Position numbers and translations under genes: made by a program | Notes under the pieces: generated by a model | Seen by the model: the letters and a program-made list of their open reading frames with translations, nothing else | The model's database searches: none | Told to the model about the DNA's origin: nothing | Virus record (IMG/VR): IMGVR_UViG_3300033149_003004 | Coordinates: 1-64,000 of that record | DNA length: 64,000 bases | Reading direction: 5' to 3' (one strand) | Source: a virus | Shown: positions 173-63,669 of the stretch, one piece after another | Layout: every line of letters begins with the position of its first letter | Numbering within the stretch: the first letter of the stretch is position 1

Positions 173-1234
173 ATGGATGATCTCGAAGCGATAAAGGCTA
201 TGATGCGACGAGCTGAGAAACGGGACCAGAGGGGCATGTTGCTGAATTGTGGCTCGTCGCTCGTAAACCTGGCTTGCTCCGGGAGAATCGAGGGAGCGTT
301 CCTGACAGGCCACTATTATTTTGTGGTCGGCGACAGCATGTCAGGTAAGACATGGCTTGGCATGAGCTGCTTTGCTGAGGCTGCAAACGACAATCGCTTC
401 GCTGAATATCGGCTGATTTATGATCCGACGGAGATTGGTGCATTGATGGATCTGGAGCAGTATTTCGGCGAGCGGGCGGCAGAACGGATTGAGATACGAG
501 ATCCTCCGAGCGGTACCGCCGAGGAGTTCTACTTCAACGTGACGGATGATTTGGAGGTCGGCCGTCCATTTATTTACGTGCTGGACAGTCAGGATTCGTT
601 GTCCAGTATGGCCGAGCGGGAGAAGTTCGACGAAGCGAAGAAGGCACATCGGAGAGGCAGAGTGACGGCCGGTAGCTACGGAGATAGCAAGGCCAAGGTG
701 CATTCGGCGAACATGCGGAAGCTGATTGGGCCATTGCGAGAGAGTGGCTCTATTCTGATTGTGCTTAACCAGACGCGGGATTCGTTTGACCAATTCAGAC
801 CGTCGACGTACTCCGGCGGTCGAGCTCTGCTGTTCTACGCTACGCTTCAGCTCTGGAACAAGGTGAAAGAGCGGATCAAGCGGAGTGTGCGAGGAAAGCC
901 CAGACAGCTAGGCGTCAAGGTCCGTGTGTCGATCAAAAAGAACCGGTTGACGGGCATGGAGAGATCTGTCGATGTGCCGATCTATCATTCGTTCGGGATC
1001 GACGAAGTGGGCTCGTTGGTCGACTACTTAGTGGATGAGAAAGTATGGCCGAAGACTAGCAACGGGTTTATCGAGGCAGCCGGCTTGGGCCCGGCCGTGA
1101 AGCTACGGCGGGACGATCTAATTCGGAAGATCGAAGAGGAGGAGTTGGTCGACGATCTGCGTGCTTTGGCTCAGCGGACTTGGAGCGAAATCGAAGGCGA
1201 GTGCGAGGTGATAAGAAAGAGGAGATATGTATGA
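173..1234 (+). CDS. RecA/UvsX-like recombinase
   Basis: Walker A GDSMSGKT, Walker B-like YVLDSQD, RecA-like IVLNQTR and SGGRALLFYA motifs. Confidence 0.85.
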   Translation: MDDLEAIKAMMRRAEKRDQRGMLLNCGSSLVNLACSGRIEGAFLTGHYYFVVGDSMSGKTWLGMSCFAEAANDNRFAEYRLIYDPTEIGALMDLEQYFGERAAERIEIRDPPSGTAEEFYFNVTDDLEVGRPFIYVLDSQDSLSSMAEREKFDEAKKAHRRGRVTAGSYGDSKAKVHSANMRKLIGPLRESGSILIVLNQTRDSFDQFRPSTYSGGRALLFYATLQLWNKVKERIKRSVRGKPRQLGVKVRVSIKKNRLTGMERSVDVPIYHSFGIDEVGSLVDYLVDEKVWPKTSNGFIEAAGLGPAVKLRRDDLIRKIEEEELVDDLRALAQRTWSEIEGECEVIRKRRYV

Positions 1235-57372: not shown

Positions 57373-58845
57373 ATGAAGACTTTGGAGATGCTCCGGAATG
57401 CCCGCCGTGCCGGGGTCCCGTTGATAGCGATAAATACGCCGGACCCGAAGGACACGATGGAGATGCTGGCCTCGCTGGCCAACGGGAAGAGCCCTGTCGT
57501 ATGCTGGGACTGCATATCGGGACTAAGGCCAGTGAACGAGGCAGGACGCGATGCCATCGCTCTAGTCAACGCCGAGGAGGCCGAAGGGAGCCCAATCGGG
57601 TTTTTGGAAGCGGCTGCTGATTTACCAGACGGTACGATAGTTTGTTTCCTCCAGGCCGATGCCTGGATCAACGAGCCTCCGGTGATCCAGGGTATCTGGA
57701 ATCTGCGTGATCCGTACAAGCGGAGCCAGAGGACATTGATACTGTTGGGCAGACAGATCCGCCTACCGCTGTCTCTGCAAGGGGACGTGGTGACGATAGA
57801 CGGAGGGCTCCCTAGCAGGGAGGAGCTAAAGGCGATCGCCAGATCGATGGACGAAGCAGCGGTTACGGCCTATGCCGAGAGGCCGGAGACAGACGAAGAG
57901 ACAATCTGTAGAGTGGCTGATTTGACAGCCGGGTTGTCTGCTTTCCTAGCCGAGCAGGCCGTGGCCATGAGTCTGCGAAGAGATGGCTTTAATTTCGAAG
58001 TACTCGCGGAGAATCGACGATCCATGATCGAGCAGACCAGAGGTCTGAGTGTCGACCGCGGGCGGGAGACGTTCAACGACATCGGCGGTCTGGATCAGGC
58101 CAAGCTATTCGGCCGAGCTTTGTTCGAGGGCCCACATCCGCCTAGTCTGGTTGTCAGAGTGGAGGAAATCGAGAAGGTGATGGCTGGGTCGCAAGGTGAC
58201 TTGAGTGGTACGAGTCAGGACGCTCTCCAAGTCATGCTCAATGCGATGGAGGATAACGGTTGGGATGGCATTGTCGCGTTCGGTTGTCCTGGAGCAGGCA
58301 AGTCATTGTACAGCAAGGCGCTGGCCAACACGTTCGGGCGAATGTCACTCTCTCTCGATTTGAATGCCACGAAGGGCAGCTTGGTTGGCGAATCGGAAAA
58401 ATATGTCCGCGAGGCAATGGGTGTGATCCGAGCGATCGGTGGTGATCGCGTGTTCTTCGTCGCCACCGCCAACCGTCTGAACACGATTCCCGGTGAGCTG
58501 TTGCGAAGGTTCCGCGGCGGCATCTGGATGTTCGACTTCCCAGGTGACGAGGAACGGTCGCGAATCTGGCCAATTCACCTCGCCAAGTACGGCGTGGATG
58601 AAAGCGAGAAGCCAGACGACAAGATGTACGCTGGTTCCGACATCCGGAACTGCTGCGAGCGGGCTTGGAAGATGGGCAAGAGCTTACGATTCGCGTCGCA
58701 GTTCATCGCTCCGGTCGGCAAGACAGCTAAGGACGTGATCCGCGACGCTCAGCGATTAGCAGACGGTAACTTCCTCTCGGCATCGCAGCCCGGCCTATAC
58801 AGATTGGGCGAGTCAGGAGGAGGCCGGCGGAGCGTGGAGTTGTAA
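57373..58845 (+). CDS. Ycf46-like AAA+ ATPase with rearranged Walker motifs
   Basis: FNDIGGLD, VEEIEK, GCPGAGKS, GSLVGESE, VATAN, PGELLRRF, GSDIRN. Confidence 0.85.
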   Translation: MKTLEMLRNARRAGVPLIAINTPDPKDTMEMLASLANGKSPVVCWDCISGLRPVNEAGRDAIALVNAEEAEGSPIGFLEAAADLPDGTIVCFLQADAWINEPPVIQGIWNLRDPYKRSQRTLILLGRQIRLPLSLQGDVVTIDGGLPSREELKAIARSMDEAAVTAYAERPETDEETICRVADLTAGLSAFLAEQAVAMSLRRDGFNFEVLAENRRSMIEQTRGLSVDRGRETFNDIGGLDQAKLFGRALFEGPHPPSLVVRVEEIEKVMAGSQGDLSGTSQDALQVMLNAMEDNGWDGIVAFGCPGAGKSLYSKALANTFGRMSLSLDLNATKGSLVGESEKYVREAMGVIRAIGGDRVFFVATANRLNTIPGELLRRFRGGIWMFDFPGDEERSRIWPIHLAKYGVDESEKPDDKMYAGSDIRNCCERAWKMGKSLRFASQFIAPVGKTAKDVIRDAQRLADGNFLSASQPGLYRLGESGGGRRSVEL

Positions 58846-60472: not shown

Positions 60473-60994
60473 ATGCAACAGCAAGACGCTGTGGAAGAAA
60501 CCTACGATGATGTGAAGATGCTAATTCACAAAATCTGTCGTAGCTTCATGCGACGGAAGAGAATTCATCAACGATACTACGAGGACTGGCACGCCGAAGC
60601 GTGCTTGGCCTTCGTTCGTGCCTATCAGAGCTACAATCAGTTGCGGGGTCGTTTTAGCACGTGGCTTTGGCACTCCGTCTGGAACGCCTTGAGTGAGCAG
60701 CTTCGGACGGAGGCCGTTCACCATCTGACCCCGCATCTGACAGAATCGCAGATGAACAGGATCATCGATAACCAAAGTCCCCAATATGACAAGAGCAACC
60801 TGGACTCATCACTGTCGCAAGATGCTAAAGCAGTGATGATGCTATTGCTTGATACGTTCGGCCATATCGACTCGCAGGAGGAGAAGCCAGGGGAGATTCG
60901 GTTGTCCATCCACGATCTGCTCAGCAGTCTAGGATGGTCGTTCCGGCGGATTGTGGAATCGTTCCGCGAGATACAGATTGCGTTAACAGAATAG
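60473..60994 (+). CDS. Sigma-70 region 2-like protein
   Basis: EACLAFVRAYQSYNQLRGRFSTWLWHSVWNAL. Confidence 0.7.
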   Translation: MQQQDAVEETYDDVKMLIHKICRSFMRRKRIHQRYYEDWHAEACLAFVRAYQSYNQLRGRFSTWLWHSVWNALSEQLRTEAVHHLTPHLTESQMNRIIDNQSPQYDKSNLDSSLSQDAKAVMMLLLDTFGHIDSQEEKPGEIRLSIHDLLSSLGWSFRRIVESFREIQIALTE

Positions 60995-60998
60995 GGGG

Positions 60999-61235
60999 TT
61001 GGGCCTCATGAGTTGCGATTTGACATTCCGTGTCGAGAAGGTATCAATCTTTACCGGTAAGGAAAGAGCCGATAGAGTCAGTATACATACTACAGTGGAG
61101 AGTCCAATGCCTAGCATCACAGCAGGACCACTCCGTCTCGACTTCGACGTGACAGCCGGTAACGGCTATCAATACGTGACGAGAGTCCTCCGAGTCAATG
61201 AGCAAGACGTTGAAGTAATCTCCATAGAAAAGTGA
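60999..61235 (+). CDS. Hypothetical protein
   Basis: GTGA overlap with the helicase start. Confidence 0.5.
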   Translation: MGLMSCDLTFRVEKVSIFTGKERADRVSIHTTVESPMPSITAGPLRLDFDVTAGNGYQYVTRVLRVNEQDVEVISIEK

Positions 61236-62599
61236 AAGCCAATCCCCTCAACTATCAGATTTCGTCGATCACCAAGATCGAGAAGTTTCATGGACGCTGT
61301 CTGTTGGCTCACGAAATGGGGCTTGGGAAAACCCTTATCTCGCTATGGTGGTGGCAACGGCATCCAGAAGCACACCCCGCGCTGGTGATTTGTCCGGCTT
61401 CGGCCAAGTGGGTCTGGGCACACGAAGCCGCTCAGAACATTGGCATCCAACCATTGGTGATCGAAGGCACAAAAGCGAAGAACATAGGTGCCGAAAGAAC
61501 GAAGCCAGATATTGTCATTATCAATTACGACGTGCTCCATCATTGGGTGGGCCAGTTGCAAAAATTCGGCTTTTGTTCGCTGTTCATTGATGAGTGCCAC
61601 TTCACGAAATCCACTTCCGCAAAGCGGACCAAGGCCGTACGAGCAGTGGCTAAAGGAATCCGGTACGTGATCGCCATTTCCGGCACACCACTACTTCAGC
61701 GACCAATCGAACTGTTTCCCACGTTGCAAATGCTCCGACCGAGCGTGTTCCGGAGCCGTTGGGCTTACGCCCACAAGTATTGCAATCCGCGTTGGACGCC
61801 GTGGGGATGGAAGTATGATGGAGCCAGTCGGCTGCCGGAGCTGCACAATCTGCTTCAGCACACCGTCATGATCCGCTATCGAAAACAGGACGTAATGCCG
61901 GAACTGCCGGAGAAGGTACGTCGTGTGCTGCCACTACCTTTGTCGGACGAAAGCGAATACTTGGAGGCTAAGGATTCGTTTCTGCTGTGGTTGGGCCGGA
62001 GAAATCCTACTCGATTACGGTCAGCGGAGCGGTCTGAAGCTCTGGTGCAGCTCGGCTACCTGAAGCGATTGGCGGCTCGGCTGAAGCTCAGGGCAGCAGT
62101 CGATTGGGTAAACAGGTGGATCGAAAGCTATCCCACGGAGAAAATCGTGTTGTTCGCTGTGCATCGCAAGGCAATTGAAGCACTGCAGCACCGGATAAAA
62201 GCCAAGATGGTAACAGTAGATGGATCTATCACCGGCAGAAAGAGAAAGACAGCAGTTCAGCAATTCCAGCAAGACAGCAGGACGAAGGTGTTCCTAGGCA
62301 ACATTCGAGCCACGGGAACAAGCATTACCCTCACAGCGGCAACTACGGTGGCATTCATCGAGTTAGATTGGGTGCCAGCCGTCCACACGCAAGCAGAGGA
62401 TCGCATCCATCGTATCGGGCAGCGGGAGAAGTCATGGATTTGGTATCTTGTCGCGGCAGGGACAATAGAGGAGAGACTCTGCAAGATTCTGGAGCAGAAG
62501 CAACGAGTAGTAACAAGTACATTGGATGGCTTTGGCAAGGCTGACGAATTAGACGTGTACAAGCAGTTACTGAAGCAGTTAGCAGAAGAAAGGGCGTGA
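61232..62599 (+). CDS. SNF2/HARP-like helicase
   Basis: HEMGLGKT, DECH, SGTP, QAEDRIHRIGQ. Confidence 0.92.
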   Translation: MKANPLNYQISSITKIEKFHGRCLLAHEMGLGKTLISLWWWQRHPEAHPALVICPASAKWVWAHEAAQNIGIQPLVIEGTKAKNIGAERTKPDIVIINYDVLHHWVGQLQKFGFCSLFIDECHFTKSTSAKRTKAVRAVAKGIRYVIAISGTPLLQRPIELFPTLQMLRPSVFRSRWAYAHKYCNPRWTPWGWKYDGASRLPELHNLLQHTVMIRYRKQDVMPELPEKVRRVLPLPLSDESEYLEAKDSFLLWLGRRNPTRLRSAERSEALVQLGYLKRLAARLKLRAAVDWVNRWIESYPTEKIVLFAVHRKAIEALQHRIKAKMVTVDGSITGRKRKTAVQQFQQDSRTKVFLGNIRATGTSITLTAATTVAFIELDWVPAVHTQAEDRIHRIGQREKSWIWYLVAAGTIEERLCKILEQKQRVVTSTLDGFGKADELDVYKQLLKQLAEERA

Positions 62600-62602
62600 G
62601 AC

Positions 62603-62797
62603 ATGAATGCAAAACATGAACTCTCCGATAATAGCAAGGAAGAGGATCGGGATAGCACAACGCTGATTGTCTGTGGGGTGCCGGAGGAGTTGAAGATACG
62701 ATTCAAGCTCTCCTGTGTTCGCCGTGGCCTATCTATGAGCGAGGTGCTGGTGGAAGCCATCAGAAGGATCGTAGAGCAGAGCGAGGATCGTCTATGA
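62603..62797 (+). CDS. Ribbon-helix-helix DNA-binding protein
   Basis: LIVCGVPEELKIRFK..C..RGLSMSEVLVEAI. Confidence 0.7.
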   Translation: MNAKHELSDNSKEEDRDSTTLIVCGVPEELKIRFKLSCVRRGLSMSEVLVEAIRRIVEQSEDRL

Positions 62798-63669
62798 GTT
62801 TGCGACAGTTGTTGAGAGATCACAACATTTCATTCGCAGAGGGCGATTCTCACCACCACGTACGCAATGGGTGGGTAGGAGTAGATTGTCCATGGTGCGG
62901 CACTATCGGTAAGTGGCACTTGGGCATTCATCTTGAGACTCTCACTGCTACCTGCTGGCGTTGTGGCAGGCACGACTTCGTCTCTGTGTTATCCAGACTG
63001 CTCAGGATAAATCGGAGTATGGCAAGGCAACTTGCGAAGGAATTGCCCAAGAGCAGGAGGCTGCCGAAACGGTCTGGGCTGTCTAGGGGAACGCTGCGAA
63101 CGCCCCCTGGACTGGAGCAGCTCTCCCGAGTGCATAAGCAATACCTGCTCAGGAGAGGATTCGATCCGGAGCATCTAATCCGCCTGTGGGGCTTGCGAGG
63201 ATTGGGCCCATTGGCAGGACCGCTGAGCTGGAGGATTTGGATCCCAGTCCACCTGAGCGGTGAAGTCGTTTCCTGGACCACTCGATCTATCGGAATCACA
63301 GAGCATCGGTATGTCCACGCCTCACCGCAGGAGGAGGTATGGCCGATCAAGACGATCCTGTACGGCTGGGACTACGTTTGGGACACCGTGATCGTTTGCG
63401 AGGGGCCGACGGATGTGTGGAGAATAGGACCAGGAGCCGTGGCGGTCTTCGGGCAAACAGTAAGCGATGCTCAGCTCAGCCTGCTGGCAACGATACCAAA
63501 ACGAATTGTGTGTTTCGATAGTGAACCATCGGCTCAAGAGCAAGCTACTCGGTTATGTGAGCAGTTACAGTGCTTTCCAGGCGAGACAATCCGCATAGAG
63601 ATTGAAGCAAACGATCCTGGATCTGCTTCTGAGCAAGAGCTTAGCGAACTCAAAAGACTATTGAGATAG
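62794..63669 (+). CDS. DNA primase-like protein (Zn finger plus TOPRIM)
   Basis: CPWC..CWRCG, VCEGPTD, CFDSE, DPG. Confidence 0.85.
   Translation: MSLRQLLRDHNISFAEGDSHHHVRNGWVGVDCPWCGTIGKWHLGIHLETLTATCWRCGRHDFVSVLSRLLRINRSMARQLAKELPKSRRLPKRSGLSRGTLRTPPGLEQLSRVHKQYLLRRGFDPEHLIRLWGLRGLGPLAGPLSWRIWIPVHLSGEVVSWTTRSIGITEHRYVHASPQEEVWPIKTILYGWDYVWDTVIVCEGPTDVWRIGPGAVAVFGQTVSDAQLSLLATIPKRIVCFDSEPSAQEQATRLCEQLQCFPGETIRIEIEANDPGSASEQELSELKRLLR

Follow-up and report, generated by a model that had tools for sequence, protein, structure and literature searches.

Few protein folds have been studied as thoroughly as the AAA+ core, in which the succession from Walker A through Walker B to sensor 1 along the chain is treated as fixed. 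In classical AAA domains (PF00004), strand beta1 with Walker A comes first and is followed by alpha1, beta2 and alpha2, by strand beta3 with Walker B and helix alpha3, and by strand beta4 with sensor 1; in the folded sheet, the strands lie in the order 5-1-4-3-2. Type II classical AAA proteins such as p97/Cdc48, NVL/Rix7 and Afg2 have a two-tier D1-D2 architecture. Among phages, the normal order is represented by the profile phrog_8638 (568 positions) and by JP1_048, the AAA-ATPase of Agrobacterium phage JP1, which matches this profile at E = 3e-128 and which we used as the normal-order reference; JGI names such proteins 'SpoVK/Ycf46/Vps4 family AAA+-type ATPase'. Permutation is known from another branch of P-loop proteins: in the circularly permuted GTPases of the YlqF/YjeQ type, later motifs precede the P-loop and the fold is kept. 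To our knowledge, these GTPases are the nearest precedent for the protein described here. Theirs is a circular permutation of the whole domain, whereas in the present case two neighbouring internal blocks of an AAA domain are exchanged and the domain ends stay in place.

We analysed a stretch of 64,000 nucleotides (hereafter the window) of an IMG/VR virus record that is complete, with 82,655 bp and direct terminal repeats. Nearly all phage genes lie on one strand, and terminase, portal, major head protein and tape-measure genes are present. The gene under study is a single open reading frame of 490 codons without internal stop, as seen in the ORF list and translation, and heads a module of four genes (Table 1). 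We estimate a probability of roughly 85% that its product is a Ycf46-like AAA protein of a tailed phage, with two domains in the style of p97, and that two adjacent blocks of the second domain (D2), here called A and B, have exchanged places. With the phrog_8638/JP1-like proteins it shares a homologous N-terminal pseudo-ATPase domain and the motifs DIGGL, P-loop, VGxSE, DEhEK, GDSG, sensor-1 Asn and ELxR[RK]. It differs from them in block order, which is A-B-C in the JP1-like proteins and B-A-C here; JP1-like proteins are also 50-130 residues longer and fall in a separate clade. The two-tier D1-D2 layout is common to the window protein and the p97 type, but the window protein lacks both an N domain and a P-loop in D1, carries swapped segments in D2, and has Leu in place of the aromatic residue of the pore loop, the pore-loop position reading SLVG. 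The strand order of D1 is normal although the P-loop lysine is absent (VPLIAINTPDP), and residues 1-165 form this domain in the AlphaFold2 model, again in normal order and without a P-loop. At the level of profiles, D1 (residues 6-244) corresponds to phrog_8638 positions 24-283, with E = 2.3e-37 for the whole protein.

Table 1. Features of the ATPase gene, its profile matches and the neighbouring genes, in window coordinates
Feature	Residues	Position	Strand	Basis or remark
Whole gene (P0001)	1-490	57373..58845	+	Two-domain AAA: degenerate D1, block-swapped D2, active by prediction
D1, pseudo-ATPase domain and helical lid	1-233	57373..58071	+	phrog_8638 match, secondary-structure order
FNDIGGLD, helix alpha0 (residues 241-252) and G-x-x-x-P linker into moved strand		58072..58143	+	Translation, AlphaFold2
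Block B, ahead of P-loop: Walker B strand VVRVEEIEK (E264, E265), GDxSG loop, helix alpha3	258-297	58144..58263	+	phrog_8638 and JP1_048 matches, coevolution
Block A: beta1, P-loop GCPGAGKS, alpha1, beta2, pore-loop-like KGSLVGESE (58372-58398), alpha2	298-357	58264..58443	+	Pfam AAA, phrog_8638 and JP1 matches
Block C: sensor-1 strand VFFVATAN, arginine fingers R378/R379, beta5, FDFPGDEER (lid start)	358-410	58444..58602	+	phrog_8638 positions 407-464
Motif FNDIGGLD	234-241	58072-58095	+	Translation
Motif LVVRVEEIEK	259-268	58147-58176	+	Translation
Motif GDLSGTSQDALQVMLNAMED	275-294		+	Translation
Motif GCPGAGKS	304-311	58282-58305	+	Translation
Motif SLVGESE	336-342		+	Translation
Motif VFFVATAN	360-367	58450-58473	+	Translation; N367 at 58471-58473
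Motif PGELLRRF	373-380		+	Translation; R378/R379 at 58504-58509
phrog_8638 piece 1		57382-58104	+	Profile 22-283
phrog_8638 piece 2		58147-58257	+	Profile 366-404, E = 4.6e-4
phrog_8638 piece 3		58267-58440	+	Profile 307-364
phrog_8638 piece 4		58447-58617	+	Profile 407-464
Lys/Glu/Ala-rich ORF, 130 aa		56849-57241		Candidate gene
DUF3150-like partner, distant, 314 aa		58873..59817	+	PF11348, E = 0.0019, below cut-off
DUF1257 (Ycf35)-like gene, 104 aa		59820..60134	+	hhalign probability 94%, E = 1e-7
DUF2997-like gene, 68 aa		60131..60337	+	hhalign probability 94.6%, E = 6.7e-8
Small sigma-70 region-2 protein		60473-60994		Pfam, E = 4.8e-7; phrog_351
Helicase		61232-62599		
Primase		62794-63669		

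The initial annotation had described an AAA+ core whose Walker B strand and helix lie ahead of Walker A, and the translation bears this out: every motif that it quoted is found in frame and in the order that it gave. Its change of the canonical DE to EE is also seen, and Glu is common at the first acidic position across the family. The GxxGxGK[ST] pattern of Walker A is present as GCPGAGKS, and a Walker B of the form hhhh[DE]E (VVRVEE, residues 260-265), the sensor-1 Asn and the arginines of the second region of homology are all found, but the classical chain order is violated, with Walker B and alpha3 preceding Walker A. Pfam AAA (PF00004) exceeds its cut-off of 21.2 bits with a score of 40.1 but covers only model positions 3-51 of 131 (residues 302-350), a partial match that is expected if the remainder of the domain does not follow the order of the model. 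Against phrog_8638, a collinear match over the whole profile fails, positions 366-404 being placed before positions 307-364. The protein instead matches in four pieces (Table 1), and their order indicates that two adjacent blocks have been exchanged. The comparison with p97 D2 gives the same swapped pattern.

The normal-order reference JP1_048 leads to the same picture. An HMM built from 320 family members also matches it in four pieces, with 64.7 bits for Block A against JP1_048 residues 344-402. An HMM of Block B on its own recognizes the Walker B region of JP1_048 (residues 404-442) with 24.1 bits and a domain E value of 6.5e-10. By sequence, the moved block is significant alone, and it resembles a Walker B unit more closely than chance would explain. 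The usual place of this unit is empty, as had been proposed: BLASTP against JP1_048 leaves a gap of 43 residues in the window protein exactly at the Walker B strand and helix of JP1. When the two blocks of the family HMM were swapped back in silico, a single collinear match resulted, which spans JP1 residues 25-578 with 203 bits and E = 3.7e-64. The rearrangement does not have the form of a circular permutation: alpha0 with DIGGL still comes first, beta4, beta5 and the lid still come last, and the internal blocks A and B are the only segments exchanged. The proposal of a non-circular permutation is supported by these segment-wise alignments to phrog_8638 and JP1_048 and by the block order of the relatives.

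We searched for relatives in two ways. A word-indexed search returned 353 homologues, and an exhaustive search matched 5088 representative clusters, 991 of them below E = 1e-30; for the best 150 of the 5088 representative matches, one or two pieces suffice for the alignment to the query. Relatives are encoded on 127 IMG/VR viral contigs. Using three block HMMs built from the family, we found the order B-A-C in 336 of 338 family sequences, the other two being truncated, and the same HMMs gave the order A-B-C in all 121 JP1-like proteins. Among isolated phages, the only full-length member was found in Tunturiibacter phage Tunturi_3 (gp103, annotated 'ATPase'), and it too has the swapped order. 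Faulty assembly, or a rearrangement confined to this genome, could in principle produce such a gene. Nothing in favour of this explanation was found, and it has a negligible probability, since the same order recurs in hundreds of independent assemblies (JGI, ENA, NCBI and Logan) at identities as low as about 36% and in the isolated phage. Homologues in canonical order, which would have pointed to misassembly, did not appear among these relatives, and misassembly is refuted.

No PHROG or NCBIfam model covers the swapped-order family, and searches of NCBIfam gave only partial matches far below cut-off. A scan of bacterial and archaeal genomes for the C-terminal pattern recovered two true members and otherwise mostly unrelated archaeal Cdc48-like genes, a result with little bearing on the frequency of prophages. 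In two members, P0123 (912 aa) and P0132 (861 aa), the P-loop of the swapped D2 is interrupted by about 350-400 additional aa that bear Hint and LAGLIDADG intein signatures. Another sequence, P0175, resembles these two in length and in its break point at query residue ~308; P0196 is similar in length only and breaks at query residue ~414.

The alignment of 320 family members was used as a census of conservation. The Walker B catalytic Glu (E265), the P-loop Lys (K310) and the sensor-1 Asn (N367) are each invariant (320/320), and the arginine fingers R379 and R378 are conserved in 319/320 and 306/320 sequences, respectively. The first Walker B acid (position 264) is Asp in 208/320 members and Glu in 110/320, the window protein having Glu. 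Within the moved block, K268, D276 and G279 are nearly invariant. The spacings across the junctions are similarly constant: G239 and E265 lie 26 residues apart in 312/320 sequences, D294 and G304 lie 10 residues apart in 317/320, and E342 and N367 lie 25 residues apart in 299/320. Length variation is confined to the loop that follows Walker B, which has between 10 and 18 residues. As judged from the sequences, the active site and the junctions are under purifying selection.

We then considered the fold. An AlphaFold2 model of the monomer, based on a 116-sequence alignment, reached a pLDDT of 95.4 and a pTM of 0.91. In this model, D2 consists of a strand at 259-263, helices at 266-275 and 280-295, a strand at 298-304, a helix at 310-320, a strand at 324-328, a helix at 340-356 and strands at 360-366 and 384-387. 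Residues 259-263 are predicted as a strand with a pLDDT of ~95-98, and the Block B region as a whole has values of 87-98. Foldseek and VIA-align matched the whole model to the D1-D2 proteins p97, Cdc48, Rix7, NVL and Afg2, with Z = 18 and 403 aligned residues for p97 D1-D2 (residues 210-775). D2 alone (residues 226-468) aligned to p97 D2 over 198 residues at an rmsd of 2.6 Å, with Z = 16 and 27% identity. About 45 D2 residues remained unaligned, which is close to the size of the moved block and is expected from a sequential aligner; both tools give sequential alignments and ranges only. The best matches among viral predicted structures were phage proteins named ycf46, with TM scores of 0.68-0.69.

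Coevolution was examined by mean-field direct-coupling analysis of 320 sequences (effective number 257). Among strand pairs, the strongest signal joins residues 260-266 in a parallel ladder to residues 360-366, the sensor-1 strand, which is the usual neighbour of the moved strand. This signal ranks in the top 0.3% of the background and comprises the pairs V261-F362, V263-F362, E264-T365, I266-T365 and I266-A366. Next in strength are beta1-beta4 and beta1-beta5, and together these couplings support the sheet order 5-1-4-3', where 3' is the moved strand. For beta3' and beta2, the best coupling diagonal is found at the 19% level of the background. The helix of the moved block (alpha3', residues 280-296) pairs with alpha2 (residues 334-357) in 8 of the top 125 couplings, and S314, which lies on the P-loop helix, is coupled to both R262 and E264. 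AlphaFold and the coupling analysis draw on overlapping alignment information and are not fully independent, and the placement in three dimensions rests on secondary structure, model confidence and coevolution rather than on measured distances. Taken as predictions, the confident strand, the ladder and the S314 couplings would place VEEIEK at the nucleotide site and not away from it. With the catalytic residues invariant and the moved strand coevolving with sensor 1 and the P-loop helix, the suggestion of the initial annotation that the permuted core may rebuild the same active site is supported.

Two other readings of Block B can be weighed against these data. The block might be the relic of a lost upstream AAA domain, with D2 lacking a working Walker B and the protein binding nucleotide as a non-hydrolysing scaffold; in favour of this, D1 of the same protein is already a degenerate pseudo-ATPase. 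The conservation of E265, K268, D276 and G279 argues against a relic, as does the coevolution of the Block B strand with the sensor-1 strand and the P-loop helix, and no other hhhhDE strand was found after the GESE helix; we regard this reading as highly improbable. In the second reading the block acts in trans: in a ring, it would fill the empty beta3 slot of a neighbouring subunit as a domain swap instead of packing into its own domain. Coevolution cannot separate contacts within a chain from contacts between chains, and the AlphaFold model was a monomer. The tethers, however, are tight: about three residues connect alpha3' (295) to beta1 (298) and about six connect alpha0 (252) to the strand (259), spacings that are nearly invariant in the 320 members, and the monomer model is confident in this region. 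Because of these tight tethers, an arrangement in cis is far more likely, and we consider a swap between subunits very unlikely.

An exchange of blocks within one chain suggests a simple structural picture. Between alpha0 and beta4 of D2, the chain passes through B before A, the reverse of the normal order, and the moved strand would stay in the beta3 slot beside the sensor-1 strand, with the sheet keeping the order 5-1-4-3. Rewiring would be limited to three loops on the side of the sheet that faces away from the nucleotide: alpha0 would enter beta3 where it formerly entered beta1, alpha3 would enter beta1 where it formerly entered beta4, and alpha2 would enter beta4 where it formerly entered beta3. 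The target strand of each new connection would lie one or two positions from the old one. With strands this close to the old ones being reached, the Walker A Lys, the Walker B Glu, the sensor-1 Asn and the Arg fingers should form a normal AAA active site. Most likely, the protein acts as a ring ATPase, with ATP hydrolysis and ring formation both predicted.

The A-B segment may have been duplicated in tandem, after which the first A and the last B were lost. This origin of the swap is plausible, and block HMMs detected no intermediate of the form A-B-A-B or B-A-B(-C) among 459 sequences. We placed the family in a FastTree phylogeny of the D2 domain, for which the permuted sequences were swapped back in silico and archaeal Cdc48-like domains served as the outgroup. 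All permuted sequences form one clade (84/84, support 0.73), which is sister to 60 JP1-like sequences (0.991), and both groups are set apart from the archaeal Cdc48-like domains (0.999). The tree suggests that the swapped order likely arose from a single origin; this is likely but unproven because the normal-order sample consists of JP1-like proteins only and is hence narrow.

A full-text literature search turned up no account of a permuted AAA or AAA+ core or of a Walker B placed before Walker A, and nothing relevant on permuted P-loops or on Ycf46 in phages; two papers from the Aravind laboratory use 'circularly permuted' only for methylases. We consider it likely that this family represents a natural and functional non-circular permutation of the AAA+ core that arose once, was kept in a very large phage lineage of Ycf46-like proteins and has not been described in print. 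If this is true, the chain order of the ASCE P-loop core would not be a hard constraint, and natural relatives of normal and swapped order, encoded in modules of one kind, could be compared to study folding and evolution. The family is a ready test case for how chain connectivity affects folding, ring assembly and subunit coupling, and it would illustrate one route by which an enzyme core can be rewired, in which three adjacent loops opposite the active site take new paths. There is also a practical side to this: annotation models depend on motif order, and Pfam AAA recognizes just 49 residues of the window protein.

Downstream of the ATPase, the module continues with DUF3150-like, DUF1257-like and DUF2997-like genes (Table 1). 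In 65 of 82 loci, a homologue of the DUF3150-like partner is found no more than six genes from the ATPase, mostly downstream and on the same strand, and PF11348 is found in 12-18% of the members of its Atlas neighbours. The partner itself has no Pfam or PHROG match above cut-off. Its AlphaFold2 model is confident (pLDDT 91.5) and found no fold match in the PDB with Foldseek. We also considered that it might be a relative of JP1_049, but the two proved unrelated when compared. Among isolated phages, tblastn found a homologue in Tunturi_3 only. The corresponding gene, gp96 (L001:7696-8655; tblastn E = 7e-18), is annotated 'HNH endonuclease' but has no HNH match in Pfam, and this annotation looks doubtful.

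The two smaller genes of the module have no direct Pfam match. They were placed with hhalign by comparing the cluster of each ORF with a Pfam-positive cluster from related loci, for which cross-controls gave about 1%. Direct Pfam matches to DUF1257 and DUF2997 occur at related loci and in Tunturi_3 gp102 and gp101, beside the swapped-order ATPase, and a DUF2997 gene with a direct Pfam match adjoins the normal-order JP1 ATPase. These placements indicate that normal- and swapped-order ATPases share the same kind of module. DUF2997 and ycf35 (DUF1257) are listed next to fed7 in cyanobacteria in a review, and a full-text search found no functional literature on DUF3150, DUF1257 or DUF2997. We offer only the tentative guess that the ATPase and its partners might carry out protein remodelling early in infection. 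This widespread four-gene phage module (AAA, DUF3150-like, DUF1257 and DUF2997) is worth functional study, for which the isolated Tunturiibacter phage Tunturi_3 is an entry point.

Several further observations concern the surroundings of the module. Immediately upstream of the ATPase lies the Lys/Glu/Ala-rich ORF, which has no Pfam or PHROG match and is overlapped by an equally long antisense ORF. The small sigma-70 region-2 protein follows directly after the module and precedes the helicase and primase genes; its homologues occupy the same position at nine related loci. Finally, a copy of the module on a 210-kb contig of a Planctomycetaceae MAG (L088:2836-5660) looks decayed. Its ATPase ORF starts at about query residue 172, so that D1 is lost, host-like regulator genes lie upstream, and the DUF3150-like gene is broken into two frames that overlap and are followed by a DUF1257-like ORF. 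This copy is probably what remains of a prophage, and it points tentatively to planctomycetes as hosts.
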